DNA of 64,000 nt from assembly GCF_004010195.1 (NCBI RefSeq), contig NC_057719.1, forward strand, positions 10,376,206 through 10,440,205, in the 5' to 3' direction. Each line of letters begins with the position of its first letter. Within the stretch, counting starts at the first letter, position 1. The notes beneath the pieces were generated by a model. That model was not told the DNA's origin. It worked only from the letters and a program-made list of their open reading frames with translations, and did not search any database. Shown one piece after another: positions 5,983 to 60,708 of the stretch. The translations under genes and the position numbers were made by a program. Origin of the DNA: Chiloscyllium plagiosum. Taxonomy: Eukaryota.

Positions 5983-6925
5983 GTAAGTGGTAGGACTCTT
6001 AGAAGCATTAAGATGCAGAGGGATCTAAGTGTATGGGTCCACAGTTCCCTGAAAGTAACAATGAAAGTGTGTTAAGGTGGTGTATGGTACACTTGCCTTC
6101 ATTGGTCGGGGCGTGGAGTGTAAAAATTGGCAAGTCATGTTGCAGCTGAATCGAACTTTAGTTAGGCCACATTTGGAGCATTGTGTACATTGTACAGTTC
6201 TGGTCACCACATTACCAGAAGGTTGTGATGCTGGAAAAGCACAGCAAGTCAGGCAGCATCCAAGGAGTAGGAGAATCGACGTTTCGTGCATAAGCCCTTC
6301 ATCAGGAATGGCTGATGAAGGGCTTTTGCCCGAAACATCGATTCTCCTGCTCCTCGAATGCTGCCTGACCCTACTGTGCCTTTCCAACTCTCGACTCTGG
6401 ATCTCCAGCATTTGCTAACCTCACTTTTAACCAAAAGGATGTATAGACTTTGGAAAGTAAGGTTTACCATGATGTTGCCTGGTTTGGAAGATATTAGCTA
6501 TTAGGAGAGATTGGCCAAATGTAGTTTGTTTGCACATGGAGACTAAGGGGTGACCTGATAGAAGTTTACAAAATTATGAGAGGCATGGATAGAATGGATA
6601 ATCCAAGTCTTTTTTTCCCAGGCTAGAAATGTCAATGACTGGGGGACATAGATTTAAGGTATAGAGACAAAGTTTAAAGGAGATGTGAGAGGCAGGTGTT
6701 TTACACAGAGTGTAAGTGCCTGGAAAATGCATTGCCAGAGGAGACATTAGAAGTAGATATGGTAACAAAGTTTCAGTGGCACCTCGACAGATACATGAAT
6801 AGGCAGTGAACAGAGGAAGATCAACCGTATATTGCCGAAAGGCTTTTAGTTTACAAAGACATCATGTGTCAGCATAGGTTTGATGGGCCGAAGGGCCTGT
6901 TCCTGCGCTGTACTGTTCTTTGTGC
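5983..6925 (+). mobile_element. CR1-type LINE ORF2 3' fragment interrupted by a PLE palindrome
   Basis: Translation YGTLAFIGRGVECKNWQVMLQLNRTLVRPHLEHCV is CR1 ORF2. It continues after 6430 to the GGGCCGAAGGGCCTGT tail. Confidence 0.85.
6227..6429. mobile_element. Palindromic PLE-derived insertion with two inverted hammerhead motifs
   Basis: Hammerhead motif on - at 6276-6307 and on + at 6312-6339 (CTGATGA-A-GGGCTTTTGCCC-GAAAC-ATC). Near-TSD ACCAGAAGGTTGT (6214-6226) / ACCAAAAGGATGT (6430-6442). Confidence 0.85.
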
Positions 6926-8487
6926 TGTATTCTCATTGAACACATTCCTTCAATTGGAACCGAATTGGTGTGCTTCCTTATTGTTCTGATTTCAGGACGA
7001 TTATTCTCAGGATAGAGGGTCCTGACAATTTTAGACAATTTATGAATAACCCAATGCTGTATAATAATTAATAACCGTTCGTGGAAACTAAATGCTCAGT
7101 CTGCCTCACTGACCTTCATCCATTTCATGACATTACATTCATCTACATTTTTTTTGTATGGCACAGCATGCTTAATTTTCACCACAAAAACTGATGAAAG
7201 GTATTCAAATCAATCTGAAACTGAAAAGTTCACATCCAATTTAAATGTCAAAATTCACATTGATGAAAAAATGTCAATGATCAAAGGTTTAGCAAACAAC
7301 TCAACTGCTCAATCATTCTCCCTTGTTAATACAACTGGAGAAAAGCTCAACTAATCCTCCAACTACCTTAATATGAAACATTAGATGTGGCTGAAATAAG
7401 GACGACCACAGCTATTAAATGTACATACTTTCCACTCAGATACCAGTGGACTGATTTCTTCACGTTGTCAGCTCAGTTAACCAGTAGTGCCTGCAACTGT
7501 ACTCTACCCAAATCAATGAGCCCCTCTCCTTGAGGTGATCTCTTTTGGATCAGCTTTAATTGCATGTTACGACGCTCTGCACAAAAGCCAAAATTGCAAA
7601 CCACTCATGGGGGAGGTCTCTTCAATTTTTCACGCGTACAATGCAAACACAAAGCTCCTGAAATTTTATTCGGCACAGGGAGGTGAGTTATGGCTCATCA
7701 GAGCCTGGTTACAGCTTACAGGCACTAACGCTCAAGTCAATTCCCTGACTTAAATACTGAGCGTATTCAAACAGATTTTATGATGCACCATCATTTGACT
7801 ACTTTGAGATTGTCCACTTTCACCATTTTTCAACATGGCTAGCATCGAAACCACATCCTGATTTCTGCCAAGCTGCTTACTGATAAAATGGACAAAATCT
7901 CAAAACCAAACAGTGTAAGACAGAGAAATATCAAATAGATTGTTGGAAGCTTCAATACCAAGTACTAAAAAGGCATAAAGATAAAAGGCTCTATACTATG
8001 CAGTGCCATGGGGAGAAAAGGTTTTTAAAAAAACATTTATTCAATTTTCTCCTCTACTGAAGTATGCTTGTATACATGTCAGGCACCCCCTCGTACTTTG
8101 CCCAAGGATCATTTTTCATACGAGAGGCAGGATCATGAACATTGACAGACTGACTGATCATAGAAATCACATTCAGCGGGAACTACTGGGTAGAGAATTA
8201 GTCACAAAGCCTCCAGTCGGTTCACTACCCTTTCTTCCTGCAGAACTACAGAAGCTAACTGCAGTATAAAAAGGAAGCTATTTGACCCTCTGAGACTAGT
8301 GTGACTCTTTCGGGAAGCAATCCAACTTTGTACTGCTCAGCTCTATTCCCACATCCAATTTTTCTTTCCGCTCTCAAGTACTTACTCAATAAGCATTTGA
8401 AGGCTACAGCTGAGTCTGTTTCCCCAACCCTACGAGAGTGCGCATTCCAAATCCTAACTAATCACTGTGTAAAAAAGTCATTTCATT

Positions 8488-9101
8488 GAGAATAAGAGGT
8501 AACCTTATTAAAGCATACAAGATTCTTAAAGCATTTGACAGAGTAGATGCAGAAAGGTTGTTTCCCCTTGTGGGAGAAGCTACACTGTAATAACTTCACA
8601 GAGGCCGGTATCCTCTCACCAAATCACCTTTTGTTTACAAAGTACCCAAGTGCAAAGTGCTCAGCACTGGTCCAACTTCCTCAGAGCCAGCTCTCAGTGA
8701 AAAGAATCCCTGACCCTCCTGTTTATATCTGTCAACCAGGGCTCCCTGATTGGGGGTGTCAACCTGGTCCAATCAGGGAACTCATATTCTATGAGGTCCA
8801 CCTGACTGACGTTGTTACAATCACTACAAAGGCGTAATCTCAAAATAAGGATTTGCCCTTTTAAGACAGCAACAAGGTAAAATTTCTATCCACAGACGAG
8901 TGAATCAGTGGAATTCTTTACTGCAAAGAGCTTTGGAGGGTGGGTTGGAGCTAAGATAGGTTTTTAATCAGTCAGGTTTTGGGGGAAAGGCAGGACAGTG
9001 GAATTGAGGATTATCAAATCAACCATGAATTCACTGAATAATAGGTTAGACTTGTTGGGCTAAATGGCCTGCTTTGGTTCCTAGGTCTTATGGTTTTATG
9101 G
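8488..9101 (+). mobile_element. CR1-type LINE 3' fragment
   Basis: AGAATAAGAGG..ACCTTATT..ACATACAAGATTCTT, ending in GGGCTAAATGGCCTGC...TCTTATGG. A ~240-bp insert interrupts it. Confidence 0.7.
8586..8828. mobile_element. Probable short solo LTR inserted in the CR1 fragment
   Basis: Begins TGTAAT, ends ACTACA (TG...CA with short terminal inverted repeat) and interrupts otherwise continuous CR1 sequence. No clear TSD. Confidence 0.5.
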
Positions 9102-10011
9102 TCAATCAGCTTAACTCAGTGCCTGGTGATTATTGCCTCCAGCAGCTACTGGAATAAATTTTCTCTTTATTCTTCTAAACCTTGTATGGTTTAAAAAAAA
9201 ACCTTCTTGATCTATGTAGCTCATTTCCAGATCCATGTAGGAAAGCAGCATACCTTGCTTTAGGAGATTACATGCCTGTCAGCACTCAGCTGCCAAACTT
9301 ATTCTCCAGTAATGATTTTTTTAAGATAGCAAGGAATGGGGGAATAGGGGTGTAAAATACATAACAACCAAAAGACATGAACGGTATTTAAGTAACTATG
9401 ATGTTTACTGCAGTTCAGACTACAGTACAACTCATAAAATAATAAAATGGAGCTATTACATTTTACAGGGAAATAACTAGAGTATGCAGCAAGAGAACGG
9501 AGCTAAACAATGCAGCAATTATCCTGCTGACAAATGGAACCTTTTCAACTCAATCTGCATTTGGTGTGAAAATAACTCAAGAGATAAATTCTACATTCAA
9601 CAGTTTGCCACTGACGAACTGAAATAGTTAAAGAATTGAGCAGAAGAAAAATAATAGGGGAGAAGAGTCACTTGCATTCAAAGCAAAACGAAAAAGGTGA
9701 ATTCATCGCAGTCCTACCAGGCCATGAGAAATAGGAACAAAAGGCCATTCAGCCCCTCGAACCTGCTCTGATATTCAATAGGATCATGCTGACGTGAAAT
9801 TCTTCACGGCCACTTTGCTGCCCATTCCCCATCACCATTGATTCCCCGACTGATCAAGACCCATCAACTTCAAGGACTCTGTCCCCACAACTCTCTGTGG
9901 CAAACAGTTCCAAAGTTTCATAATTCTCTAGAAAAGAAACTCCCCCCTCATCTCAGTCTTAATTTGGCACTCCTTTGTTCTGAGACTATGCCCTCTCATC
10001 CTAGACTCTTT

Positions 10012-10938
10012 TGTGATGATGCTAAAGCTTTAAGAGGTGTATTTTGTCCTTGTTTTTTGTGAAGAATGGTTAAGACAGAGATACCGAGTAGTACATTCAA
10101 TAGAGTGAACAGCTTGTGAGGCCTTGAGGTTTCTTTTCAAAAGTTGGAACAATAGAAGCAGCCTGAATGGGTGAGGTCAGGCTCCTACAGAATCAGGATT
10201 TCTACTTTTAGCTTTCTGCAGTTGCTTGGATCTAGATGTAAGCATTCTTATTCCCCTCTCAGTTACAGTTAAAAGCTGGGGTTCGCTTCCTGCTGCTAGA
10301 ATTGCTTGCGAGTCAATTTTACTGAAATTGCCTTTGCCCAGGGTGTGTTTATGGGATAATACTACGTTGTAACAGTTAATTAGTAGTAATCAATATATCT
10401 ATTATTTTGTTAAGCAGTTCGATAGAGTTATAGTTACGCCAATTAGAGTCATAGAGATGTACAGCATAGAAATAGACGCTTGGGTCCAACCCGTCCATGC
10501 CGACCAGATATCCCAACCCAATCTAGTCCCACCTGCCAGCACCCAACCCATATCCCTCCAAACCCTTCCTATTCATATACCCATCCAAATGCCTTTTAAA
10601 TGTTGCAAGTGTACCAGGCTCCACCACTTCCTCTGGCAGCTCATTCCATACATGTACCATCCTCTGTGTGAAAAAGTTGCCCCTTGGGTCTCTTTTTTCT
10701 CTTTCCCCTCTCACTCTAAACCTAAGCCCTCTCGTTCTTTCTTTTCTTTTATCATTATTTTGACTGTATTTTAACTGTAGTTTAAAAATAAAGTGTGTTT
10801 TGCTTAAAGTTGAGTAGTTTGACCAATCAAATTGTATCTGGAACGCAATGTCTTACAGTCAACTTTAAAATAAGAAAACGTTAGGGTCTAGGCTATCTTC
10901 TTAACATATTATGAGGGCATTTAGTCTGGTCCCTAACA
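10012..10938 (+). mobile_element. Solo LTR (probably Gypsy-type) interrupted by a CR1 3' fragment
   Basis: TGTGA...TAACA termini, AATAAA near 10787, 4-bp flanks CTTT/CTGT, and a homologous copy in opposite orientation at 18738-19378. Confidence 0.7.
10444..10731 (-). mobile_element. CR1/HER1-type LINE 3' end
   Basis: Minus translation RGNFFTQRMVHVWNELPEEVVE.GTLATFKRHLDGYM; same tail as 3094-3565. Confidence 0.9.
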
Positions 10939-10954
10939 CTGTGACGATTGGTCT

Positions 10955-18001: not shown

Positions 18002-18256
18002 TATTACAAACAAAAACAACAACACAATACGAAGATGAAAAGTGTCTGGAAAATTTCTCTCTGGCTACTCTTCTGAGGTAATCATAGAAATAATGCAGCC
18101 TGAGCCTTTTGTGTGTGTGATTGCATATAGCCTTCTTAACCATGATACTTCGATTGAAATGTGGGCAGGCCAGCGTTTGTTGCCCATCCCAAAAGGCACT
18201 TAACTGAGTCACGTACTAGGGCCATTTCAGAATCAACCCCATTGCTGTGGGGGTCT

Positions 18257-18355
18257 GATTCCTGATGAAGGGCTTATGCCTGAAATGTTGACTCTCCTGC
18301 TTCTCGGATGCTGCCTGACCTGCTGTGCTTTTCCAGCACCACTCTAATCTAAACT
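18257..18355 (+). mobile_element. Single-arm PLE terminal-repeat remnant with degenerate hammerhead motif
   Basis: CTGATGAAGGGCTTATGCCTGAAATGTTGA followed by the same sequence as 66-130. Confidence 0.75.
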
Positions 18356-20151: not shown

Positions 20152-20298
20152 GGTAAAAACAATGACTGCAGATGCTGGAAACCAGATTCTGGATTAGTGG
20201 TGCTGGAAGAGCACAGCAATTCAGGCAGCATCCGAGGACAGGCCTGTCCTCGGATGCTGCCTGAATTGCTGTGCTCTTCCAGCACCACTAATCCAGAA
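20152..20298. mobile_element. PLE-derived perfect 112-bp palindrome with 15-bp TSD
   Basis: 20187-20298 is self-complementary about 20242/20243. TSD CCAACATTCCTCATG at 20137-20151 and 20299-20313. The host is a CR1 3' fragment (~20050-20510, -). Confidence 0.9.
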
Positions 20299-21814: not shown

Positions 21815-22336
21815 TGAGCAGTTGCTGTTGTAGTCTGGTATACTGATCTCGACATTGCAGAGGCTGAGCATCAACTCTCAGATACCTCCTCCTATCTTCC
21901 CCTGGATCATATCTCCAACATGGCACATCAGGCCACTGTATGAACTACAATCACTGACCTCATTTCTCCCCCACTGCCTCCAAGCTGACAGTCTCCCAAC
22001 CCCACTCCTACCTCCTTCTGAAAATCCACAAACAGGACTGCCTGGGTAGACCCATTGTTTCAGTCTGTTCCTGCTCCACAGAACTCATCTCTGCCTGCCT
22101 TGACTCCGTCTTCTCTCCCCTGGCCCAGTCCCTGCCCACGTACATTCACAATTCCTCTGATGTTTCTGTATATAAACCAACATATTCCTAGATGCCATCA
22201 GTTCTGAGGAAGGGTCTCAGCACCCAAAATATTAACATTGACTTCTCTTCACAGATGCTGCCAGACCTGCTGAGCTTTTCCAACAACTTCAATTTTTTTT
22301 CTGATTTCAAGCGTCCGCAGTTCTTTCGGTTTTTGT
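21815..22336 (+). mobile_element. Degenerate PLE reverse-transcriptase N-terminal fragment followed by a terminal-repeat remnant
   Basis: Translations AVVVWYTDLDIAEAEHQLSDTSSYLPLDH and PIVSVCSCSTELISACLDSVFSPLAQSLPTYI match PLE RT. GTTCTGAGGAAGGGT...CACCCAAAATATTAAC at ~22201 is a decayed hammerhead motif. Confidence 0.75.
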
Positions 22337-22596
22337 TTAAGGTGGAGCATGAGGTTTTTATATCCTCTGGTCATATGATACGACAGTAATGATATTATAA
22401 CCATGGCCCTTAGACATATAGTGATGATGAGACATACCACAATTACATTAGGCTTCAGCTGTTTGATTTTTAATAGTGTGATAAATTACTGTCAAACAAT
22501 CTTTATTTCTGAAAATTTACTTAAATAAGGTTCTCATTCATTTAGGTTTTAATTTTTGTTGGAAATATGAAGTTGTGTTTATCACATCTTCTGTTG

Positions 22597-24049: not shown

Positions 24050-24283
24050 AGATAAAAATAAAAATTGCTGGAAAAGCTCAGCAGGTCCAGCAGCATCTGC
24101 AGAGAGAAATCAGAGTTAACATTTCAGGTTGAGTGACCCTTCCTCAGAACATTCTGAGGAAGAGTCGCTGGACCCGAAACATTAGCTTCGATTTCTGTCC
24201 ACAGATGCTGCCAGACCTGCTGAGTATTTCTAGCAATTTCTATTTTTGTCTCTGATTTACAGTATCTGCAGTTCTTTCAGTTT
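24050..24283. mobile_element. Palindromic PLE-derived insertion with two inverted hammerhead motifs, nested in a SINE
   Basis: GTTAACATTTCAGGTTGAGTGACCCTTCCTCAGAA / TTCTGAGGAAGAGTCGCTGGACCCGAAACATTAGC, with ~100-bp inverted arms. Confidence 0.8.
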
Positions 24284-24844
24284 CCTCAGAACATTACCTG
24301 GGTCTCTGGATTACTGTCTAACATTAACAACACTGGGCCATCACCTCCCCCTAACACAAGTGGAAGTGGAGCATACAACCCTTTGAGTGTGTTCTGCCAA
24401 TCATTAAGATCATGGCTGATTTGATTGTGGCCTCAATTCCCTTGTCTTCCCATACCATTTGACTCCCTTGTTAGTCAAGATCTATTTACCCCTGCGAGAA
24501 ATATTCAATCACTCAACCTCTATCACTCTTTGGGAAGTGAATGCTACCGGTTAATGATCAAGTGAGAAAAGACAAATTCTCATTGTCTCCATGTTAAATG
24601 GGAGCCCCCCCCACCCCTTATTTTATCAAGATCTCTGTTCAGCAACACTCCCCAGGACCTTACCATTAAGTATGTTTCAATTTAGTCACCTCTTTTAAAC
24701 TCTGGAGGAAATTGGCAAACTTGCCTTGACTTCCTCAGAAAGGCAATTTGCTCAATTTGCTTATTAGCTTAAGGGTTCGCTGAATTGCTTCCAATGCATT
24801 AATCCATATGGTGACCTTTACTGTACATAGTACATTCAGTGTGA

Positions 24845-25412: not shown

Positions 25413-25717
25413 GTGTAGGATCCTGAGGGACTTGACTGGATGGATGTGGAAACGATGTTTCCTTTTGTGGAACAATCTAGTACGAGGAAGCACAGCTTAA
25501 AAATAAGGAGATACCCATTTAAGACTTTTTTCTCAAAGCATTGTGAGCCTTTGGAATTCCATTCCTGAAAAGGAATCTTTAAATATTTTAAAGACAGAGG
25601 TAGATAGATTCTCGATGCCCAAGTGCATGAAAATTCTTAGGGATCTGCAGGAATGTAGGGTTGAGGTTAAAATCAGATCAGCCATGACCTTATTGAATGG
25701 TGGTCGACAGGCAGGAG

Positions 25718-29145: not shown

Positions 29146-29324
29146 GTGAATGAGGACTGCAGATGCTGGAGATTAGAGTCAGGATTAGAGTCAAGATCAG
29201 GAATGAAGGGCTCCTGAAAGGAACGATCCCTGATGAAGGGCTCCTGCCTGAAACATCGATTCTCCTGCACCCTGGATGCTGCCTGACCTGTTGTGCTTTT
29301 CCAGCACCACTCTAATCTTGACTT
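29146..29324. mobile_element. PLE-derived inverted insertion with hammerhead motif and 16-bp TSD
   Basis: TSD AATATAAATTAAGTAG at 29130-29145 and 29325-29340. Motif CTGATGA-A-GGGCTCCTGCCT-GAAAC-ATC at ~29230-29257. Confidence 0.85.
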
Positions 29325-41983: not shown

Positions 41984-42315
41984 GGGCGGCACGGTGGCAC
42001 AGTGGTTAGCACTGCTGCCTCACAGCGCCAGACACCCGGGTTCAATTCCCGCCTCAGGCGACTGACTGTGTGGAGTTTGCACGTTCTCCCAGTGTCTGCG
42101 TGGGTTTCCTCCGGGTGCTCCGGTTTCCTCCCACAGTCCAAAGATGTGCAGGTCAGGTGAATTGGCCATGCTAAATTGCCCGTAGTGTTAGGTAAGGGGT
42201 AAATGTAGGGGTATGGGTGTGTTGCGCTTCGGCAGGGCGGTGTGGACTTGTTGGGCCGAAGGGCCTGTTTCCACACTGTAAGTAATCTAATCTAATCTAA
42301 TCTAATCTAATCTAA
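41984..42315 (+). mobile_element. HE1-type V-SINE inserted in the satellite
   Basis: Full-length with (TAATC)n tail. It splits a B unit, AAATTCAGC|ATTATAGCC, with only 2-3 bp duplicated. Confidence 0.95.
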
Positions 42316-42829
42316 GCATTATAGCCATGTGAAACTCAGGGTTATAGCATGGTTAAATTCAGCATAATAGCAGTGTGAAATTCAGGGTAATACCATGTTT
42401 ACAATCAGTATTATTGCCATGTGAAATTCAGAGTTATAACATGGTTAAATTCAGCAATATTGCTATGTGAAATTCAGGGTTATAGCATGGTTAAATTCAG
42501 CATAATAGCAGTGTGAAATTCAGGGTAATACCATTGTTAAATTCAGCATTACAGCATAATTGTGAAATGTAACCATGCTATAACCCTGGATTAAATTCAG
42601 CATTACAGTAGTGTGAAATTCATGGTTATAGCATTATGAAATTCAGCGTTATAGCTATGTGAAATTCAGGGTTATAGCATAGTTAAATTCAGCATTAGAG
42701 CCATTTAAAATTTTGGGTTATTGCATGGTTAAATTCAGCGTTATTGCATAGTTAAATTCAGCATTAGAGCCATTTAAAATTTTGGGTTATTGCATGGTTA
42801 AATTCAGCATTACAGCATAATTGTGAAAT

Positions 42830-45060
42830 GTAACCATGCAATAACGCTGAATTTTAAATGGCTCTAATGCTGAATTTAACTATGCTATAACGCTGAATTT
42901 AACCATGCAATAACCCAAAATTTTAAATGGCTCTAATGCTGAATTTAACTATGCTATAACCCTGACTTTCACATAACTATAAGGCTGACTTTCACAATGC
43001 TATAACCATGAATTTCACACTACTGTAACGCTGAATTTAACCATGCTATAACCCTGAATTTCACTCTGCTATAATGCTGAATTTAACATGCTATAATCCT
43101 GAACTTCACAGTGCTATAACACTGAATGTAAATATGTTATAACCCTGAATTTCACATGGCGAAAACGCTGAATTTAACCATGCTATAACCCTTAATTTCA
43201 CGCTGATATAACGCTGAAATTAACCATGCTATAACCCAGAAAATAACCATGGTATAACCCTGCATTTCATATGACTATAACGTTGACTTTAACCATGCTA
43301 TAACCCTGAATTTCAAACTGCTGGAACGCTGAATTTAACATGCTATAACCCTGAATTTCAAATGGCTATAATGCTGAATTTAACAATGCTGTAACACTGA
43401 ATTTCACACTGCTTTAACGCTGAATTTAACCATGCTATAATGCTGAATTTAACTATGTTATAACCCAAAGTTTTGCATGACTCTAATGCTGAATTTAACT
43501 ATGCTATAACCCTGAATTTCTCATGGCTATAATGCTGAATTTAACCCGATATAACCCTGAATTTCACAATGCTATAATGCTGAATTTAACCATGCTGTAA
43601 CCCAGAATTTCAAATGGGTATAATGTTGAATTTAACATGCTATATCTCTGAATTTCACATGGCTATATGGCTGAATTTAACCATGCTATAACCCTGAATT
43701 TCACAATAGTATAATGCTGAATATAAACATGGTATAATGCTGAATTTCACATGGGTATAATGCTGAATTTCACAATGCTATAACACTGAATTTAACCATG
43801 GTATAATCCTGAATTTCACATAGACATAATGCTGAATTTAACCATGCTACAATGCGGAATTTCACACTGTTGTAACGCTGAATTTGACATGCTCGACCCC
43901 TGAATTTCACATGGCTATAATGCTGAATTTAACCATGCTATAACCCTGAATTTTACACTGCTCTAACGCTGAATTTTACCATGATATAACCCTGAATTTC
44001 ACGCTGCTATGATGCTGAATTTAACCATGTTATAACCCAGAATTTCACATGGCTATAATGCTGACTTTAATGATGCTATGACCTTGAATTTCACACTGCT
44101 GTAATGCAGAATTTAACATGCTATAACCCTGAATTTCACATGGCTATGCTGAATTTAACCATGCTATAATACTGAATTTCATAATGGTATAACGCTGAAT
44201 TTAACGATGCTAAAACCCAGAATTTCACATGGCTCTAATGCTGAATTTAACCATGCTATAATGCTGAATTTAACCATGCTATAATACTGAATTTCATAAT
44301 GGTACAACGTTGAATTTAACTATGGTATAATCCTGAATTTCACATGGCTATAATGTTGAATTTAACCATGCTATAACCCTGAATTTCAAATGGTATAATG
44401 CTGAATTTGACATGACTATAATGTGAATTTAACTGTGCTAAAATCCTGAATTTCACACTGCTGTAACGCTGAATTTAACATGCTATAACCCTGAATGTCA
44501 CATGGCTATAATGCTGAATTTAATCATGCTATAACCCTGAATTTCACAATACTATAATGCTGAATTTAACCATGCTATAACCCTGACTTTCACGTGGCTA
44601 TAATGCTGAATTTAACCATGCTATAATGCTGAATTTAACCATGCTATAATACTGAATTTCATAATGGTACAACGCTGAATTTAACTATGGTATAACCCTG
44701 ACTTTCACATGGCTATAACGCTGAATCTAACCGTGCTATAACCCTGAATTTCACAATGCTTTAATGTTTAATTTAACCATGCTACAACCCTGACTTTCAC
44801 ATGGCTATAACGCTGAATCTAACCGTGCTATAACCCTGAATTTCACATATTTATAATGCTGAATTTTACCATGATATAATCCGGAATTTCACATAGCTAA
44901 AAGCTGAATTTAACCATGGTATAATGCTGAATTTCATGCTGCTATAATGCTGAATTTAACCATGCTATAATGCTGAATTTAACCATGCTAAAATGCTGAA
45001 TTAAACGATGCTATAACCCTGAATTTCACACTGCTATAATGCTGAATTTAACAATGCTAT
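42830..45060 (-). repeat. Inverted block of the satellite
   Basis: Units read GCTGAATTTAACCATGCTATAACCCTGAATTTCACA, the reverse complement of the flanking array. Confidence 0.95.
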
Positions 45061-46713
45061 AGCAGTGTGAAATTCAGAGTTATAGAATGGTTATATTCAA
45101 CGTTATAGCCATGTGAAAGATAGGGTTATAGCATGTTAAATTCAGCGTTACAGCAGTGTGAAATTCAGGGTTATACCATGGTTAAACTCAGCATTATATC
45201 CATGTGAAATTCTGGATTATAGCCATGTAAAATTCAGTGTTATAGCATGGTGAAATTCAGCGTAATAGCCATGTGAAATTCAGGGTTATAGAATACTTAA
45301 ATTCAGCATTAGAGCCATGTAAAATTTTGGTTTATAGCATGGTTAAATTCAGTGTTACAGCATGTTAAATTCAGCGTTACAGCAGTGTGAAATTCAGGGT
45401 TATACCATGGTTAAACTCAGCATTATATCCATGTGAAATTCTGGATTATAGCATGGTTAAATTCAGCATTATAGCCATGTAAAATTCAGGGTTATAGCAT
45501 GGTAAAATTCTGCATTATAGCCATGTGACATTCAGGGTTATAGCATGGTTAATTTCAGCATTATACCAGCGTGAAATTCAGTGTTATAGCATGGTGAAAT
45601 TCAGCGAAATAGCTATGTGAAATTTAGGGTTATAGGATATTTAAATTCAGCATTAGAGCCATGTAAAAGTTTGGGTTATAGCATGGTTAAACTCAGCGTG
45701 AGAGCCAAATGAAATCCAGCGTTATACTATGGCTAAATTCAGCATTATAGCTATGTGAAATTCTGGGTTATAGCATGGTCAAATTCAGCGTTATAGCCAT
45801 GTGAATTTCAGGGTTATACCACGGTGAAATTCAGCGTTATAGTATTGTGAAATTCAGGGTTATAGCATGGTTAAATTCAGTGTTGTAGCATTGTGAAATT
45901 CAGGGTTATAGCATGGCTAAATTCAGTGTTATAGCCATGTGAATTTTAGGGTTATACCACGGTGAAATTCAGCATTATAGTATTGTGAAATTCAGGGTTA
46001 TAGCATGATTAAATTCAGTGTCATAGAAGTGTGAAATTCAGGGTTATAGCGTGCTTAAATTCAGCGTCATAGGAGCGTGAAATTCAGTGTTATAGCATGG
46101 TTAAATTCAGAGTCATATCAGGTTAAATTTAGCATTATAGCCATGTGAAATTCAAGGTTATAGAACCGTAAATTCAGCATTATAGTCATGTAAAATTCAG
46201 GGTTACAGCATGGTTACATTCAGCGTTACAGCAATGATAAATTTAGGGTTATAGCAATATTAAATTCAGTGTTGTAGCATTGTGAAATTAGGGTTATAGC
46301 ATGGTCAAATTCAGCATTATAGCAGCGTGAAATTCAGGCTTATTGCATTGTTAAATGCAGCGTTATAGCATGGTTAAATTCAGCGTTACAGCACTGTGAA
46401 ATTCAGGATTATAGCATGGTTAAATTCAGCATTATACCCATGTGAAATTCAGGGATATAGCATGGTTATATTCAGCATTATAGCCATGTGAAATTCAGGA
46501 TTATAACATGGTTAAATTCAGTGTTATAGTTATGTGAAATTCAGGGTTATAGCATTGTTAAATTCAGTATTGTTGCATTGTGAAAATCAGGGTTATAGCA
46601 TTTTCAAATTCAGGGCTATATCATGTTAAATTTAGCATTCAAAGTTTGGGAGAAGATTTGTAACTCGGGTGCTTGTTGTTGTGGTTCTGTTCGCCGAGCT
46701 GGGAATTTGTGTT

Positions 46714-46753
46714 GCAGACGTTTCGTCCCTTGTCTAGGTGACATCCTCAGTGC
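46714..46753 (-). ncRNA. Minimal type-I hammerhead ribozyme motif (intact core)
   Basis: GCA-CUGAGGA-U-GUC(ACCUAGACAAGG)GAC-GAAAC-GUC-UGC: helix I GCA/UGC, helix II GUC/GAC, palindromic ACGU helix III, GUC cleavage triplet. Confidence 0.8.
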
Positions 46754-47391
46754 GTGGGAGCCTCCTGTGAAGCGCTTCTGTGATCTTTCCTCCGGCAAGG
46801 TATACAGGAAAGCCACACACACAGACCAAGTCCTAAACTACGAAAGCAACCACCTCAACACACACAAAAGAAGTTGCAACAAGACACTGTTCAAAAGGGC
46901 CAGACTACTGCGACCCATAGGACTCATAACGGCACACAAACCAACAGCCACGCTCAGACAACTCACCAGAACGAAGGACCCGATACCCAACATGAGCAAA
47001 ACGAATGTAGTGTACAAAATACCATACAAGGACTGCACAAAACACTATATAGGACAAACAGGAAGACAGCTAACAATCCGCATACATGAACATCAACTAG
47101 CCACGAAACGACACGACCAGCTATCCTTAGTAGCCACATACGCAGACGGCAAGCAACATGAATTCGACTGGGACAACACTACTATCATAGGGCAAGCCAG
47201 ACAGAGAACAGCCAGGAAATTCCTAGAGGCATGGCATTCATCCACAAACTCCATCAACAAACACATCGACCTGGACCCAATATACCAACCACTACAGCGG
47301 ACAGCTGAAACTGACAACCGAAAGCGGCAGGGACAGACCATTATAAACACCGGAGGAAACATCAAAGAAGCGCTTCGCAGGAGGCTCCCAA

Positions 47392-47431
47392 GCACTGATG
47401 ATGTCGCCTAGCCAGGGGACGAAACGTTTGC
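47392..47431 (+). ncRNA. Minimal type-I hammerhead ribozyme motif
   Basis: GCA-CUGAUGA-U-GUC(GCCUAGCCAGGG)GAC-GAAAC-GUU-UGC. A second, CpG-decayed copy lies at 48158-48197. Confidence 0.75.
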
Positions 47432-50053
47432 AACAAAAACTTCCAGCTCGGCGAACAGAACCACAACAGGGCCACAATACACTGCAGTACACCAGAACTG
47501 CAAAAAGAGCAAGAAGAACACCTCTACAATGTATTCGCCAAAAACGGATACTCCCGCAATTTCATCAACAGATGCCTAAAGTAAAGACAACGGAATGAGG
47601 ACATGCCACAACCCAAAGGACTAGCCACACTACCATACATCAAAAACATTTCTGAACTGACAGCCAGACTACTGCGACCACTAGGACTCATAACAGCACA
47701 CAATCCAACAGCCACGCTCAGACAACAACTCACCAGGACGAAGGACCCGATACCCAGCATGAGCAAAACCAATGTAGTGTACAAAATCCCATGCAAGTAC
47801 TGCACAAAACTCTACATAGGTCAAACAGGAAGACACTAATGATCCGCATCCATGAACACCAACTAGCCACGAAATGACATGACCAGCTATCCTTAGTAGC
47901 CACACACTCAGATGACAAGCAACATGAGTTTGACTGGGACAACACTACTATTTTAGGACAAGCTAAACAGAGAACAGTCAGGGAATTCCTAGAGACATGG
48001 CATTCATCCACAGATTCAATCAACAAGCACATCAACCTGGACCCAATATACCGGCCACTGCAACGGACAGCTGGAACTGACAACCGGAAGCGGCAGATTC
48101 AAACCACTACAAATGCCGGAGGAAAGATCACAGAAGCGCTTCACAGGAGGCTCCCAAGCACTGAGGATGTCACCTAGACAAGGGACAAAACATCTGCAAC
48201 ACAAATTCCCAGCTCGTAAATTTAGCATTATCGCCATGTGAAATTCTGGGGTAAAGCACAGCTAAATTCAGCATTACACCAATTTGAAAATCAGGGTTAC
48301 AGCATGTTAAATTCAGCATTATAGCCATTTGAAATTCAAGGTTATAGCACCGTTAAATTCAGCATTATAGCCATGTAAAACTCAGGATTACAGCATGGTT
48401 AAATTCAGCGTTATAGCAATGATAAATTCAGGGTTATAGCATTGTGAAATTAGGGTTATAACATGGTCAAATTCAGCATTATAGCCATGTGAAATCCAGG
48501 GTTATACCATGGTTAAATTCAGCATTATAGCCATGTGAAATCCAGGGTCATACCATGGTTAAATTCAGCATTATAGCCATGTGAAATTCAGGATTATAAG
48601 ATGGTTAAATTCAGCATTATAGCAGTGTGAAATTAAGGGTTATAGCATGGTTATATTCAGCGTTCTAGCCATGTGAAATTCAGGATTATAAGATGGTTAA
48701 ATTCAGCGTTATAGCAATGTGAAATTCATGGATATAGCATGGTTAAATTCAACGTTGTAGCATTGTGAAAGTCAGGGTTATGGCATGGTTAAATTCAGCG
48801 TTATTGCCATTCAAAATTTATTGTTATAGCATGGTGTAATTCAGCATTAAAGCAGTGTGAAATTCAGTGTTATAGCATTGTCAAATTCAGGGGTATATCA
48901 GGTTAAATTTAGCATTACCGGCATGTGAAATTCTGGGGTATAGCACAGTTAAATTCAGCATTATTCCAATTTGAAATTCAGGGTTATAGCATGGTTAAAT
49001 TCAGCATTATAGCCAGGTGAAATTCAGGGTTTGAGCACGGTTAAATTCAACGTTACAGCATGTGCATTTCAGGGTTTATCAGGTTAAGTCAGCATTATAG
49101 CCAGGCGAAATTCAGGGTTATAGCATACTTTTCTTCCGCATTAGAGCCATGTAAAAGTTTAGGTTATAGCATGTTAAATTCAGCATTATAGCAGTGTGAA
49201 ATTCAGGGTTATAGCATGTTAAATTCAGTGTTATACCCATGTGAAATTCTGGGTCATAGCATGGTTAAATTCAGCCTTATCCCATTATGAAATTCAGTGT
49301 TATTGCATGGTTAAATTCAGCGTAATAGCCATGTGAAATTCAGAGTTGTAGCATTTTTAAATTCAGCAATATAGCCATGTGAAATTCAGGGTTTCAGCAT
49401 TGTTAAATTCAGCATTATAGCCATGTGAAATTCAGGATAATACCATGGTTATATTCAGCATTATACTATTGTGAAATTCAAGGTTATAGCATGGTTAGAT
49501 TCTGCATTATACCCATGAGAAATTCAGGGTTATAGCATGGTTAAATTCAGCGTTACAGTATTGTGAAATTCAGGGTTACAGCAGTGTGAAATTCAGGGTT
49601 ATACCATGGTTAAATTCAGCATCACAGCAGTGTGAAATTCAGGGTTATAGCATGGTTAAATTCAGCGTCACAGCAGTGTTAAATTGAGAGTTATAGCATG
49701 GTTAAATTCAGCGTTATAGCCGTGTTAAAGTCAGTGTTATAGCATGATAAAATTCAGCAATATAGCATTGTGAAATTCATTGTGATAGCACTATTAAATT
49801 CACAGTTATAACAGTGTGAAATTCAGGGTTATAGCATGGTTAGATTCAGTGTTATAGCCATATGAAATTCAGGGTTACAGCATGGTTAGATTCAGTTTTA
49901 TAGCCATATGAAATTCAGGGTTACAGCATGGTTAGATTCAGTGTTATAGCCATATGAAATTCAGGGTTATAGCATGGTTAGATTCAGCATTATTTTTGTG
50001 TGAAATTCAAGGTTAATCCACACTGCTTTAAAATGGAATACTACATAAAATAC

Positions 50054-50241
50054 GAAAGATATGCGGATGCTGTAAATCAGAAATGAAAATGAAAATTTCC
50101 TGGAAAGGCTCAGTAGATCTGGCAGCATGTGTGTTCTGAGGAAGGGTAACTCAACCTGAAACGTTAACTCTGATTTCTCTCCATAGATGCTGCCCGACCT
50201 GCAGAGCTTTTCCAGCAAGTTCTGCTTTTTTTCTGATTTAA
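50054..50241. mobile_element. PLE-derived inverted insertion with hammerhead motif (50133-50168, +)
   Basis: GUU-CUGAGGA-A-GGGU(AACUCA)ACCU-GAAAC-GUU-AAC. Inverted arms CTGGAAAGGCTCAGTAGATCTGGCAGCAT / ATGCTGCCCGACCTGCAGAGCTTTTCCAG. Confidence 0.8.
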
Positions 50242-50967
50242 AGTGAACAGTGTTTCATTAGAACATGAACATTTTTCATTTTCGATTGCTTTTACAAAAT
50301 ATTTATTGATTACTTATTTAATAGCTGTACACGCGAAACCACTCTGCATTATATATTCCAGAAATGGTATCACACACATCTCTATGGAGCAGGTGGAACT
50401 TGAAGCCAGGCCTCCTGGGCTAGGGCTATGGATTTTACCATTGTGCCACAAGATCCCTGAATGGATATAGTTTGGAAGATTTTACTCTGAATTTGAGTGA
50501 AAGGACTTAATTTTATCCAATCTATATGATTTAATTAAATGCCATAACATCAAACTCTTAAAGGATAATCAATTAAATCTGGCTTCAGACACTGGAAACT
50601 GTCCTATTGAGAATGAAGACAAACTAAACAGCATCACTGTTACACCTCTTGGAATGTAAAATGGGCTTCAGCTGTAGAATATTAATGCACACAAACAGCA
50701 TATTAACCCAGTAAGTCTGTTGTCATGCTCACTGTAAGGTAGTTCACCTCATGTGCTTCATAATACCACTTCCCTGTTATAGTGCTGAGTCAATATTTTA
50801 ATCAGCCTATTCAAAGATGTTATGACACATGGCTGGACCAGATGGGTCTTAAACTACAATCCTCCTGGCTCACAGGTAGGGACACTGCCACTGCACCGTA
50901 CAACTCCCTGTATTAGGGCCGATCAAATGCTCATTGATGTAAAACAAGTGAGCAGTACTGGTCTACT

Positions 50968-53671: not shown

Positions 53672-54267
53672 GTGAGTATAAATACTCACCTTTTAATCAC
53701 CAACGGTCATTTGAGTGGGAGCAGCGGAAGTGAGGTTGGAGCGCATAGCTGGGCGGGAAGGTAAGTGATTAGTATTTGAGTGGGTGTGTTCTAGACCCCA
53801 GGTCCTACTCCCGTAGGGCCTCCCTCCCACCCTCCTCCTCTAGCCTAACTTTAAAGTCCACAGGTAAGTGACTCAGTGTTATTGACTCAGTGCTCTTGTT
53901 TTTGGAGAAAGTGTACAGTCATGGCAGCGCAGGCGGTGGACTGTTCCTCCTGCAGGATGTTTGAGGTAGGGGTGACCACCGATACTCCTGCCGACTTCGT
54001 CTGCAGGAAATGCAGTCAGATCCTGATCCCCACCGAACGAGTTAGGGAACTGGAACTGGAGTTGGATGAACTGAGGATCATTCCAGAGGCTGAGAGGGTG
54101 CTAGATAGAAGCTACAGGGACATAGTTACGCCGGAGAACAGAGGTAGCTGGGTAACAGTTAGAGGTGGGAAGGGGAAGAAGCAGGCAGTGCAGGGTTCCC
54201 CTGTGGACGTGCCCCTAAAAAATAAATATACAGCTTTGGAAACTGTTGGGGGGGACAGCGTTGCAGG
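53672..54267 (+). mobile_element. CR1-type LINE 5'UTR plus ORF1 N-terminus (3'-truncated)
   Basis: From ATG 53921: CSSC...FVCRKC zinc finger, coiled coil ERVRELELELDELR, then WVTVR and VPLKNKYTAL motifs typical of CR1 ORF1. Similarity ends abruptly at ~54267. Confidence 0.8.
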
Positions 54268-54513
54268 TGTAATGCCAGGAAGCAGCCTGATGAATAAGAA
54301 CTGGACTCTCTCTGTTGTATCAATCCCTTTTAATGAAGCAGAACTGAAACTGTGCACAGTAATCCAATTACTAATTGGAAGAATAATAAAACAGCAATGG
54401 CAAGGACAAAGGCTTGCCATTTGCACTAGCTGGTAAGACTGGAAAACTGGGCTACTCCCAATTCTGCCCATTTGACAGCATTTCATCACTATTGGTTAGA
54501 TTAAAGTTCATTC

Positions 54514-56830: not shown

Positions 56831-58165
56831 CATCACATGAGCAAATAGGAAAACAGGATTGAGAATGAGAAAATACGTCACAGAAGTAAATTGGGAAATG
56901 AAAAATAAGACATTTGACATTGGTAACAGCAGAGTTATCAATCACAGTGATTCTAAAAAGAGTGCTAGAATTATGGAACCCACATCCTCATACTAGTAAC
57001 TGAACCGAGATGAATTGTTTATTATAATCCTGAAATTAATAGGTTTTAACATTCAAAACTATGAAGAGAATTGGGACAACAAATGGCATATATGTTGCCC
57101 ATGAACAAACATAATGTCTTTGAATGGTGGAAAAGGCTATGAGCCATAATTTTCCTACAATTGAACCTGTAATAGTTGGTAATCATTTTGTTGTTAGGGC
57201 AAATTTACTAATTTACTAACCAAGAAAGCAGTCAAACCTAAAGTAGCACAGATCTAGGTAGCAATGCTGTATTCCCATCTTGGGACGCATGATGCATTTA
57301 AGATTGTGTTCACATTCAGGATACAGGGGGGATAAATTCATCCCAAGATGTGATCTAAGCCCTGGTTAATACCAGGCAATTCAGATTCCAGACAGGAACC
57401 AACTTGATTGATCATAATTTTGATTTTTACAAAATGGTCTTTCACTGAAACATAAGCAAGCAATGTTGCAACATTTTCTTCAGCAATAAAGCGGAATTAT
57501 ATTAACAGGAGATAAGAGGATAAGTTAGAATCTACCAAACTATCAACTTAAAATATAAATTCAAAGTATTTTGAGCATGCAGTAAAAATTGTAATCCCAT
57601 TAATCTCAAAATCTTCTTTTATAAATTGAAAAGAAACAAAACAGCTTTTGTACAGTACCTGAAACACACTCCTGGCGCAGTAAACAAAACACAACTCACA
57701 CAATACTCACATACTCCAGTACACAGCCTTACTGGACTTTGGTAGGTTTAAGTCACTAATGAGTCCCACTTTTACACTGAAACTGCAGATACAATTTTGA
57801 GATCAGAACTGCAGCTAGCTCCAGGAAGAAGCTATTCTCCATCAAGCTTCAATGTAATCAGTTTTAAGTAACCTCTTCAAGGGTTTGTCTACTTCTGGTC
57901 TGGATTAACATCACGTCCTCACTCAGAGAACACAGTTCACTATACATCCTTCCCTGGTCTGGAAAATGGGTTTATACAGCCAACCTATTCCAATGACATT
58001 GCAGGACTGCCACAAACTCAGAGCAAAAATTGAAACCCAAGGAAATCCATCTCTTCTGTGTGTTCACCTTCAGCTTAAGAAATACAAGTTCCAGAAATCT
58101 CTAACAAACCTTAAGGGTCTGCTTTTCACCTGCTTTGTCACAAAACAGTCTAAAATAACCAAAGT

Positions 58166-58403
58166 TAAAAATCACACAACACTAGGTTATAGTCCAACAG
58201 GTTTAATTGGAAGCACACTAGCTTTCGGAGCGACGCTCCTTCATCAGGTGATCGCTCCTTCATCAGGTGGTAGGCTATCACCTGATGAAGGAGCGTCGCT
58301 CCAAAAGCTAGTGTGCTTCCAATTAAACCTGTTGGACTATAACCTGGTGTTATGTGATTTTTAACTTTGTACACCCCAGTCCAACACCGGCATCTCCGAA
58401 TCA
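58166..58403. mobile_element. Palindromic PLE-like insertion (distinct family) with inverted hammerhead motifs and 15-bp TSD
   Basis: ~90-bp inverted arms. TSD TAAAATAACCAAAGT at 58151-58165 and 58404-58418. Motifs at 58216-58250 (-) and 58279-58313 (+). Confidence 0.88.
58216..58250 (-). ncRNA. Minimal type-I hammerhead ribozyme motif, AGCU/CUA variant
   Basis: CAC-CUGAUGA-A-GGAGC(GUC)GCUCC-GAAAG-CUA-GUG: helix I CAC/GUG, 5-bp helix II, palindromic AGCU helix III. Confidence 0.78.
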
Positions 58404-59846
58404 TAAAATAACCAAAGTCACTTAGTGTTGCACAAACCCATTCCCTCTAAGGCCAGGCCCCAAATGCTGTTTTAAAAGAAATGACCATGGCTACAGAAAT
58501 AGTACAAGATAGTTATTATCTTCAGACAGATGGTTATTATCTGAAAAAAAAACTCAATCTTACAATAAATATATTTTAAAAATATAAATCCTACAGGTGA
58601 CATGACATAAGGAACATATAACTAAATAATAATACTTGGAATGTGTGTTCGAGTGTGGTGGGATTCTTATGCATTTGTGATTTTTAACTGGTTGGCTTTA
58701 TGCAAATGATGCAATTTTGTACATGCATAGCACATTATTGCTAAGTAATTGAAATCAAATGGAATTTCTCAGTAAATGGGCAATAATGTATTTAAGTGTT
58801 TTTTTCCTCTTGTTCAGATCACGACTTGAAGGTGCATTAACATTCCTGGAGTTACAGGGTGTTCAGTTCTGATGCAGAATCTCAATACGTGCCTTCACTG
58901 TATATTGGTTATGGTGCCTGAATGATGATAATGAGTCTTTTGTCAAGGTTTTCTCGTAATTGATGCTTCTAACTACTGGTTCTGAATTACATGTTCTTTG
59001 ACCCAATGTAAATGACCACTTCAGTCTGATCAGAAGTGAATGTCACCTTCATTGTCCTTGGAGGCCGCATGAATATTCTATTTTGGGGGACCTTGTGGTT
59101 AAAGTTCTTGATCCCTTTTTCTTTAGAAGACCCTCTCACTGGATCTTTTAACTCATTCAAACTCATTGTTGCTTTGTTTGCAATATATATTAATGACTTG
59201 TAGGAAAGAAGTGAACATACTGCAGCCAAATTTGGCACAAAAATGGGCACGTTGCAAGAGAGATATTGATGGGTTAACTAAATGGACAAAACGTTTGCAA
59301 ATGGAGTATAACGTGGGAAAATGTGAAGCTGTTCGTTTTAAAAGGGAGGACAGATTGCTATTGAAATGGACAAAAACTAGAGAAAGCCGCAGCACAAAGG
59401 GACTTGGGATTTCTACACGAAACACAGAAAGCTGGTACACAGGTAATCAGGAAGGCCAACAGAATGTTGGTCGTTATTTCAAAGACGTTGGAGTCCAAGA
59501 GTTTTACTGCAACTGTACCAGGTGCTGGTGAGACTACATCCGGAGTGCTCTGTGCAGCTTTGGTCCCTTTATCAAAGGAAAGACATTATTTCATTGGAGG
59601 CAGTTCAGAGAAAGGTCACCAGGATGATCCCTAGTATGGAGGAATTGTCTTATGGATAAAGACAATACAGAATGGGACTGTACTCACTGTTGTTTAGAAG
59701 GAAGACAGGAGATCTAATCGAAACATATCGGATTCTTAAGAAGTTTGACAGGGTAAATGCTGAGAGAATGGTGACTCTCATGGAATAGTCTAGGACCAGA
59801 GGGCACAGTCTCTGAATGAAGGCACACCAATTTAAAACTGAAATAA

Positions 59847-60708
59847 TGTTATGCAGATTTGGATGTACTGAATCTTTAATAGCGTTTAATGCTAACAGCA
59901 CTACCTGACAGCACCAAGTGTTCTGAACAAGACATAATGTAACCTGTGAAGAGAAAATGAGGTCTGCAGATGCTGGAGATCAGAGATGGAAATGTGTTGC
60001 TGGAGAAGTGCAGCAGGTCAGGCAGCATCTAGGGAACAGGAGAATCGACGTTTCGGGCATTAGCCTGAAGAAGGCTAGATGTTCCCTAGATGCTGCCTGA
60101 CCTGCTGCGCTTCTCCAGCAACATATTTCCATCCATAATGTAACCTGTGGTTCACGAGCAAGTGTAGCTGGTTGCCGGGAAATGACAAAACAGATTCAAA
60201 TTAGGACAATCAGTTTAAACTAAACTCCAAAAAAAACCAAACTCCAATCAAGTTTGAATTTAGTGCATCAACAATTGTAAAAGCATAATCCGATGCTTTG
60301 GGGATATAAGACCGGGGAAAATTGAACAGTTGGGAGGAGAACTGCCAAACCAATGACATCTGCAGACTGCCTGGACATTAGCTCTCTTAAAGGTCTGCGA
60401 CCTGTGAAGCTGAAATCCCTAAGGAGAAGAAAAGAAGGTCCGACATCTGGGTAGTTTTTTGTAAACTTGAATTTTTGTTAAATCATAATCGGGGGTTTTA
60501 TCAGACTAATATTGCAGAAGGGGAAGATAAAAGATAGGATAGAAGAAGGAGGTGTAAATAGTTGTGAGTTAATTATTCTCAGTTACGCTTTAAGAAATAA
60601 AGTTGTTAATTTTTACTTTAAATAGTTCATGTCCTATCGAATTTTCACAGACTACTGCATGGGATAAATCTTTTCTGTGTTGCTGGTTTAAATTACGCAG
60701 GAGTAACG
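59847..60708 (+). mobile_element. Solo LTR with 4-bp TSD
   Basis: TGTTA...TAACG termini (last base differs from the expected A), ATAA duplicated on both sides, TATA-like GATATAAG near 60303, AATAAA near 60596. Confidence 0.7.
59949..60133. mobile_element. Palindromic PLE-derived insertion with 16-bp TSD, nested in the solo LTR
   Basis: TSD CATAATGTAACCTGTG at 59933-59948 and 60134-60149. Inverted arms surround truncated hammerhead halves (TCGACGTTTCGGGC; CTGAAGAAGG). Confidence 0.88.

Follow-up and report, generated by a model that had tools for sequence, protein, structure and literature searches.

Short head-to-head palindromes in a shark genome are probably minimal insertions of an endonuclease-bearing Penelope-like element

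Introduction

The window analysed here, a 64,000-nucleotide stretch of Chiloscyllium plagiosum DNA, contains recurrent short, non-coding, head-to-head palindromes. How do such structures arise, and do they form a transposon family of their own? An initial annotation described five palindromic insertions with long target-site duplications (TSDs) and five similar palindromes with no readable TSD. It interpreted them as retrotransposed products of Penelope-like elements (PLEs), with a strand switch near an RNA end defined by a hammerhead ribozyme.

In the available parts of PMC3846280, PMC8557442 and PMC8969392, insertions of endonuclease-bearing (EN+) PLEs have an inverted pLTR, a one-sided tail of 30-40 nt and a TSD of variable length. 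The overall layout of the insertions is already known. The available text of PMC11167929 reports that two reverse transcription (RT) start sites define the tail, that both strands are cut and extended, and that cleavage is not needed. De novo PLE insertions are reported to have a median length of 128 bp (PMC9977147).

Results

The arms derive from Penelope-like elements

A longer, 5'-truncated copy on the plus strand (4533-5075) comprises a GIY-YIG remnant (4533-4733), a pLTR with the hammerhead C3 at 4948, and a tail. This copy ties the arms termed family A to a PLE ORF and thereby fixes the sense strand. The family A arm runs on directly from the GIY-YIG C-terminus, for which there are 206 relatives at E<=1e-3; of the 10 relatives scanned, 7 carry a Pfam GIY-YIG match, with 2 of these reaching the curated cut-off, and one has RVT_1 as well, in PLE order. 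For the 67-aa remnant itself, Pfam returned nothing useful (nor did it for two other fragments), a word-index search gave 0 matches, Atlas gave no usable match, and BLASTP gave no alignment with the fragment at 61066; its placement comes from the relatives.

A coding PLE insertion of family D (46640-48216) has the same layout. It consists of an inverted tail arm (46640-46797) and a partial tandem of two ORF-end copies, with hammerheads at 47395 and 48161, and is flanked by a 13-bp TSD (46627-46639/48217-48229). The inverted arm matches the terminal pLTR at 100/103 positions and the middle pLTR at 93/109. Family D is likewise contiguous with a GIY-YIG ORF; the Pfam GIY-YIG match at 61066-61506 has an E-value of 3.6e-4, below the cut-off. 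The ORF linkage covers families A and D and not B or E, while family C is linked only to a piece that we take to be RT-like. Of an intact autonomous partner, the window contains fragments only.

Judged from families A and D, the terminal sequence is the pLTR of an RT plus GIY-YIG ORF, as in EN+ PLE insertions, and the head-to-head inverted, 5'-truncated copy with a 30-40 nt tail at one end is present as well. The GIY-YIG remnant and the coding copy, with its shared layout and TSD, bear out a PLE origin of the arms by retrotransposition. The MITE-like appearance is that of the known inverted-pLTR-plus-tail layout without its coding part.

Target-site duplications at the insertion borders

The borders and TSDs initially given for the five named insertions are correct. 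Four TSDs are perfect: 15 bp at 20137-20151/20299-20313, 16 bp at 29130-29145/29325-29340, 15 bp at 58151-58165/58404-58418 and 16 bp at 59933-59948/60134-60149. The fifth, of the insertion at 6227, has exact borders (left copy 6214-6226 on the plus strand, right copy 6430-6442) and matches at 11 of 13 bp. Among 1082 random window pairs, a score of at least 15 was reached in 3 and a score of 11 in 1; since all four overlap the elements themselves, the background otherwise peaks at 10. Unanchored, the 6227 TSD falls inside this background; anchored at both borders, it is equalled by 6 of 200,000 random pairs.

The group described as having no readable TSD proved mixed. The palindrome at 24050 has a decayed 14-bp TSD matching at 10/14 (101/200,000 in the null, as the best of 7 border and length trials), while the search found none at 5097, 32381 or 50054, nor at the single-arm copy at 18257.

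For 20152, 4 of 6 non-self paralogous matches span the site and carry it once; for the single-arm insertion at 31738, a paralogue at 3304-3457 carries the site once. No paralogue spanning the target was found for 6227, 29146, 58166 or 59949. The target of 6227 presumably resembles a CR1-type LINE. No empty orthologous site turned up for either 58166 or 59949. In species B, the right end of 58166 is joined to its flank (records 4 and 20), and none of the 15 listed of 1,347 joints skips over 59949.

One layout recurs in four arm families

The single design proposed for these elements holds as a layout common to the copies; the ten palindromes derive from four arm families and not from one. Family A supplies the arms of 1-130, 6227, 20152, 29146 and 59949; family B those of 58166; family C those of 24050, 32381 and 50054; and family E those of 5097. 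Positions within arms are given below as RNA coordinates relative to C3 of the hammerhead; several ends, including the 59949 right arm, 29146 and 5097, were read by eye.

In 6227-6429, a no-tail arm on the minus strand (6227-6310; -5 to +79) meets a tail arm on the plus strand (6312-6429; 0 to about +123), and both retain the hammerhead core. In 20152-20298, the arms are identical (56/56), both end at +35 and the hammerhead is absent; the tail arm is the left one. The element at 58166-58403 has a no-tail arm (58166-58252, minus strand) and a tail arm (58277-58403, plus strand) that both begin at -5, separated by a 17-nt re-copy plus filler; its left TSD copy ends in 6 nt shared with the arm, as priming microhomology. 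In 59949-60133, a tail arm on the minus strand (59949-60065; to +9) is followed by a short core piece from about -1 (by eye), a gap and a no-tail arm (60080-60133). In 29146-29324, the left, tail arm reaches -6, with a 4-nt microhomology switch into filler and then a no-tail arm (29229-29324). This copy, perfect in its 16-bp TSD, is barely palindromic: its arms hardly overlap because about 75 nt are gone from within the left arm, and its MFE is -55 kcal/mol, whereas the four remaining named insertions range from -116 to -162 kcal/mol.

Among the remaining copies, the window boundary truncates the family A palindrome at 1-130 (junction 0 / -7), and the family C palindrome at 24050-24284 has its junction at -3 / -2. 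At 32381-32772, a family C complex combines one minus arm (to -6) with two plus arms, and at 50047-50243 a family C tail arm reaches +46 with the other arm starting at -3. In the family E palindrome at 5097-5258, the junction is ambiguous: it falls at a self-complementary word of 6 nt within loop II, unless the right arm is read as starting from the cleavage site. Single-arm copies also occur: a family A copy at 18255-18352 (plus strand; from -7 or -4 to the no-tail site), a family E insertion at 31738-31832 (minus strand; from -2, with a decayed 13-bp TSD, 9/13) and a copy at 63609 that starts at -4. Self-BLAST returned inverted pairs at 6227, 20152, 58166, 59949, 1-130, 5097, 24050 and 32381, and none at 29146 or 50054.

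The two arms differ in length by 30-36 nt in most copies, by about 44 nt in 6227 and by 55 nt in the coding copy. Nine simple insertions can be seen at both ends, and each of them combines a tail arm with a no-tail arm, an outcome with a probability of 0.002 if starts were picked independently at equal odds. At the centre, the no-tail arm extends beyond the tail arm in 7 copies and falls short of it in 1-2 (p 0.07-0.18), a suggestive difference and no more.

Arm cores are identical within 20152 (51/51) and nearly so within 59949 (49/51), as compared with at best 42/45 and 35/40 against other copies in the window. For 6227, the match is no better within the pair (31/36) than with other copies (36/39). 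Both arms contain sequence missing from their partner in 6227, 59949, 24050, 50054 and the coding copy, so that neither was copied from the other.

Arm ends cluster at the 5' edge of the hammerhead

The minimal-hammerhead motif has 15 matches in the window, versus a mean of 1.3 (maximum 4) in 30 shuffles, and points to a putative minimal hammerhead in the pLTR, as in EN+ PLEs; Rfam returned no hammerhead among its 8 matches. Thirteen of the 20 arm 5' ends lie at -7 to 0 from C3, about 28-36 nt from the predicted cleavage site. The junctions are thus non-random relative to the ribozyme, as had been supposed. The accompanying idea, that the strand switch takes place where the ribozyme has cleaved the RNA, is not supported: no arm end of the 20 lies within 3 nt of the predicted site, one 5097 end being ambiguous (+15 or at the site). 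The link between junction and ribozyme is positional, at its 5' edge, and not via cleavage. Retention of the whole catalytic core in most arms indicates that the template was uncleaved RNA, in line with the in vitro report for the anole PLE (PMC11167929).

Junctions were also said to differ in every copy, yet those of 1-130 (0 / -7) and 6227 (0 / -5) are nearly equal. Assigning these two to separate subfamilies was dropped; the comparable arms are truncated or lie beyond the window.

Reads indicate many independent products

In genome-wide read data, tail ends are sharp: contigs diverge into unrelated flanks at 58397-58404 (352-1021 of them) and at 59951 (465-785). The 1,347 distinct joints, 15 of them listed, each occur on 0-3 contigs per run, and the centre of 58166 has 0.02-0.35% of arm depth, in agreement with the initial reading of mostly independent products. 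Arm depth is about 10^5 times unique-flank depth, a rough guide and not a copy number. Some junctions are multiplied, and one joint is amplified in species A. This family B joint (58243->58322) has a depth of 1152 in X5 (species A), where single-copy depth is 10-31, and of 13.5 and 18 in species B, with 17 RNA reads; 9 of the 15 joints listed exceed a depth of 100 in X5. An apparent cluster of joint ends at +31 was discounted: alignments are interrupted there by a subfamily indel of 2 nt at 58214/58311. Scanning by pattern for additional copies gave 5 viral and 4 prokaryotic loci, treated as chance matches, and two metagenome scans gave 0 further copies.

Folding and transcripts

Folding of 20152 gives z = -18.4, and long dsRNA hairpins, as initially suggested, are predicted from such models. 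For read-through transcription, RNA depth over the unique flanks of 58166 and 59949 is 0-0.43, a weak measure drawn from 2% of one single-cell poly(A) run. A check for A-to-I editing was dominated by paralogues, with 35 A>G and 34 T>C places in the RNA run versus 38-42 and 18-28 in DNA runs. Separately, family B arms provide transcripts with a used poly(A) site. Rfam gave sub-threshold miRNA matches on three of the named palindromes.

Discussion

We consider it likely that these elements are minimal insertions of an EN+ PLE, each made by two coupled reverse transcriptions, and do not form a separate transposon family. The proposal builds on what is observed here: PLE origin, TSDs, the pairing of tail and no-tail arms, and the clustering and diversity of junctions. 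The reaction would begin with staggered cuts by the GIY-YIG endonuclease, one in each strand and 13-16 nt from each other. The 3' ends freed in this way would each prime reverse transcription on uncleaved PLE RNA from one source, one cDNA beginning at the downstream 'tail' start and the other at a start 30-35 nt upstream. Both cDNAs would halt early, mostly on reaching the hammerhead's 5' edge (C3 -7 to 0); the cause could be a short inverted repeat in the element itself or an RNA 5' end at that place. The cDNA 3' ends would join through microhomology or with filler, and fill-in would complete a head-to-head palindrome of unequal arms between TSD copies of 13-16 bp.

We only infer the coupling of the two events, probably through a dimer on one RNA with the upstream RT leading, since start-site use in vitro showed no difference between strands in the available text of PMC11167929. 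A fuller version is possible, if somewhat doubtful, in which the coupled step is new for PLEs and the stumps preserve a very large natural archive of it. One dimer would use both starts simultaneously, always one per target strand, with the cDNAs converging on a fixed limit where the uncleaved hammerhead has its 5' edge. The inversion point would be set, without cleavage, by the ribozyme fold, its two-RNA dimer or an RNA start immediately upstream. A small minority of palindromes may re-transpose as units, the joint amplified in species A being the candidate.

A palindrome could also form if a cDNA or an antisense template folded at the inverted repeat overlapping C3 and copied its own second arm. 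The available part of the PMC3846280 Discussion favours such self-priming, on an antisense template, for rotifer PLEs. Here, the perfect palindrome at 20152, the switches at a 4-nt inverted match in 29146 and at the self-complementary word in 5097, and small hairpins over C3 that fold in 4 of 6 copies tested would all suit it. However, the five copies with private sequence in each arm, a tail in one and a longer 5' end in the other, are impossible from one sense cDNA, and no-tail ends are precise. We judge self-priming unlikely, though conceivable in its antisense-template form. It is very unlikely, in our view, that the palindromes are a self-propagating, non-autonomous family resembling retrozymes or SINEs, in which PLE enzymes put entire hairpin RNAs back into the genome. 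Non-autonomous PLE derivatives are on record, 1-130 and 6227 have a junction in common, and the amplified family B joint is single-copy in species B; but with ends crowded into an 8-nt zone, chance would be expected to give one shared junction in a set of ten (estimate about 0.2), and the amplified joint may be carried by a satellite or a segmental duplication. Also against it are the number of different joints and the low depth of the 58166 centre, the recurrence of the design in four families with both outer ends at RT start sites, and the lack of a ribozyme in 20152.

Origin after insertion, by loss of the centre of a longer inverted PLE insertion or from a DNA-transposon MITE, appears extremely unlikely. 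Internal deletions do exist (29146, 59949 and the join of an RT piece to the pLTR at 21970-22204), and the coding copy has a longer precursor layout; against collapse, single-arm copies start in the same zone, and the junctions show filler and re-copying of the kind that template jumps typically leave. A MITE, as a derivative of a TIR DNA transposon, is rejected by ends offset by 30-44 nt, by a TSD that varies from 13 to 16 bp and by the PLE-derived sequence. Returning to paired reverse transcription, a comparable event is L1 twin priming, where both nicks prime and an inverted 5' part results within the TSD. The halves formed there copy different parts of the RNA, whereas in the shark a single part is copied twice, from two fixed starts.

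Canonical EN+ PLEs, as described in the available literature, likewise have a head-to-head inverted 5'-truncated copy, palindromes at the inverted junction and a hammerhead in the pLTR. The shark halves differ as stumps without an ORF at very high copy number, in their TSD (13-16 bp, versus 8-10 bp in rotifer PLE examples) and in having the junction mapped against the ribozyme. Anolis Poseidon (PAc) shares two internal RT starts, extension of both strands, a predicted dimer and dispensable cleavage, while the available text of that study (PMC11167929) contains no joined inverted products, tail/no-tail coupling or stop zone at the ribozyme 5' edge. The minimal type I hammerheads of metazoan PLEs, in the accessible part of PMC4209133, likewise have no real helix III, a palindromic 15.2-16.2 word and an extra base after A9. 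The same source places dual minimal hammerheads of Schistosoma about 100-700 bp apart on opposite strands, as compared with 10-40 nt between the putative hammerhead cores here. Non-LTR retrozymes (bioRxiv 10.64898/2026.07.22.740005, in the part available) are also non-coding, derived from PLE pLTRs, equipped with a type I hammerhead and present in a chondrichthyan. They are head-to-tail tandem repeats, whereas the shark elements are inverted pairs with TSDs; assignment to this class was rejected, the arms being inverted and no hammerhead-bearing tandem array appearing in the 32 TRF rows. In the main texts of the open-licence literature, we found no paper on these shark palindromes and no junction hotspot at the ribozyme 5' edge.

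In annotation, such palindromes would pass for MITEs or miRNA hairpins. The formation of PLE inverted ends and tails is termed undefined in the available PLE literature. The high arm depth lets junction position, tail pairing and TSD length be tabulated at scale against the in vitro system, and the point at which the stumps meet may tell something new about how PLEs are copied.

Palindromes and their target site duplications

All ten palindromic stretches described in the initial annotation exist as described. Self-BLAST of the window recovers inverted pairs for eight; in the two starting at 29146 and 50054, too little of the arms overlaps for detection. Five had been assigned target site duplications (TSDs). 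Four of these (20152, 29146, 58166 and 59949) are perfect and 15-16 bp long, whereas the copies flanking 6227 agree at only 11 of 13 positions. Scores of at least 11 occur four times among 1082 random window pairs, every one overlapping the elements themselves. Anchored at both borders, the 6227 match is equalled by 6 of 200,000 random pairs, and it is significant only because both copies abut the element borders. Among paralogues of the 20152 site, four of six non-self hits span the target and each holds it once; the paralogous target of a single-arm copy at 31738 likewise holds its site once. An empty orthologous site did not turn up: the right border of 58166 is present in species B, and no skip of 59949 appears among the best 15 of 1,347 contig joints.

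Origin of the arms

The minimal-hammerhead motif has 15 pattern matches in the window versus 1.3 in shuffles; Rfam reports no hammerhead among its 8 window matches. The arms sort into four families, A, B, C and E. A longer family A copy (4533-5075) contains, contiguously, a protein remnant, the terminal repeat (pLTR), the hammerhead and the same arm. This remnant has 206 relatives, with a GIY-YIG match in seven of the ten scanned and the order RT then GIY-YIG in one scanned relative. It also fixes the sense strand, so that the arm pairs are head to head. The coding insertion at 46640-48216 represents the full version: an inverted arm with a 55-nt tail, a partial tandem and a 13-bp TSD, whose 13-mer is found twice more within the surrounding satellite. 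This 23/46-bp satellite spans about 15 kb (34528-49987) and contains a homogeneous block of 191 copies at 34840-39235. It hosts the insertion and flips orientation near 42.82k and 45.06k, giving kilobase-scale inverted arrays.

Other remnants occur in the window, whose LINE/SINE content marks the host as an animal. An RT-like coding fragment at 21970-22340 (one relative, E 4.7e-10), which we take to be Penelope-like element (PLE) RT, directly abuts a family C pLTR arm; this appears to be an internally deleted PLE. At 61066-61572, a GIY-YIG ORF end (Pfam E 3.6e-4, below the cut-off) precedes a hammerhead at 61506; together they make a putative family D-like PLE end. Another PLE 3' end at 25700-26560 (minus strand) combines a hammerhead at 25791 with a short GIY-YIG-like C-terminal remnant that was recognized by eye. 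On the plus strand at 53855-54436, a frame of 193 aa between stops contains two CxxC motifs and has no Pfam match; it resembles the start of a CR1-type LINE ORF1.

Arm ends and the hammerhead

Each family has two fixed outer-end sites, 30-36 nt apart. Genome-wide, the tail ends are points at which hundreds of contigs per run depart from the reference and continue into AT-rich flanks of unrelated sequence. All nine simple insertions with both ends visible (omitting the complex 32381 and the cut-off 1-130) pair one tail arm, attributed to the downstream RT start, with one no-tail arm, attributed to the upstream start. The no-tail arm reaches further at the centre in 7 versus 1-2 copies, a non-significant tendency of the kind that a leading upstream RT would produce. 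Two family B arms lie tail to tail, 155 nt apart, at 63274-63330 (plus) and 63486-63609 (minus); one is no-tail and one tail, no TSD was found for the pair, and they are probably two insertions.

Numbered from core residue C3 as position 0, the predicted cleavage site follows position +27 in family A, +28 in B, +29 in C and +30 in E. Of the 20 inner ends, three of them read by eye, thirteen fall at -7 to 0, and none lies within 3 nt of predicted cleavage, one end of 5097 being ambiguous. The earlier proposal of a cleavage-defined RNA end is thus unsupported. The most 5' inner end falls within this 8-nt zone in eight of ten palindromes (simulated chance 1.5e-5 to 1.6e-3, varying with the assumed range and allowing for the post hoc window), as do the starts of three single-arm copies. 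One end lies there in 12 of 19 family B joints (13 including an amplified joint), these being the best-supported of >1,300 and the count being biased by a reference that stops at -5/-7. Small hairpins over C3, which fold in four of six copies, are a candidate basis for this limit; RNA start at -7 to 0 is another candidate.

Independent products or self-propagation

The initial annotation favoured independent products with unique junctions. Four sequencing runs, three of DNA and one of RNA, were mapped to 57700-60600 (84,000-96,000 contigs per DNA run; 1,347 joints). Arm depth is in the millions versus 10-31 in unique flanks, and depth over the 58166 centre is 1071-2554 (X5, species A), 5121-6304 (X9) and 8637-10382 (X13), or 0.02-0.35% of arm depth; this junction is therefore not common to the mass of copies. 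The rarity of this centre and the number of joints favour independence, whereas 1-130 and 6227 have a junction in common and one joint is amplified. The latter, family B joint 58243->58322, reaches a depth of 1152 in species A against 13.5 and 18, the level of a single copy, in species B. It is covered by 17 RNA reads and is possibly a self-propagating or duplicated palindrome.

Proposed mechanism

For an anole PLE, PMC11167929 describes cutting and extension of both target strands, a tail corresponding to the stretch separating two internal RT starts, a predicted dimer, and insertion unchanged in ribozyme mutants. By analogy, the reaction here may begin with a target cut of 13-16 nt stagger. 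Two target-primed cDNAs, one from each RT start, would both stop early and then be joined. Arms of young copies are closer to each other (51/51, 49/51) than to any other copy, which points to a single RNA as their source. In five copies each arm carries sequence absent from its partner, arguing that simple snap-back of a single sense cDNA is excluded. An antisense-template version of self-priming (PMC3846280) may also make the second arm.

In a single-cell RNA run, poly(T) loose ends precede 58187 and 58190 (479 and 422 reads, deriving from family B as a whole). These ends reflect in vivo addition of poly(A) to hammerhead-sense RNA at +57 to +60, some 15 nt past an AATAAA/ATTAAA word; the 58166 copy has no genomic A-run there. 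As the site lies upstream of both RT starts, we infer that PLE templates must be read-through RNAs. At the loci themselves, the unique flanks of 58166 and 59949 have an RNA depth of 0-0.43 in the 2% of the run that was covered, and candidate editing changes (A>G at 35 and T>C at 34 places, versus 38-42 and 18-28 in the DNA runs) are dominated by paralogues.

Relation to known elements

The palindromes are real and are PLE insertions of already known layout. They share the inverted 5'-truncated copy and one-sided tail of the standard form, where the tail is 30-40 bp (PMC8557442, PMC3846280 and PMC8969392). Their 13-16 bp TSDs differ from the 8-10 bp of the rotifer examples in PMC3846280. Hammerhead pairs on opposite strands were noted earlier (PMC4209133), and PMC9977147 reports de novo PLE insertions that are very short. 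Tests of membership assigned the palindromes neither to MITEs nor to retrozymes. The literature searched yielded no account of these palindromes or of the -7 to 0 hotspot; supplements and repeat databases, outside that search, may bear on the point. Added here are a junction zone at the 5' edge of the ribozyme and a strict pairing of tail with no-tail arms, together with a poly(A) site in the family B arm and one amplified joint.
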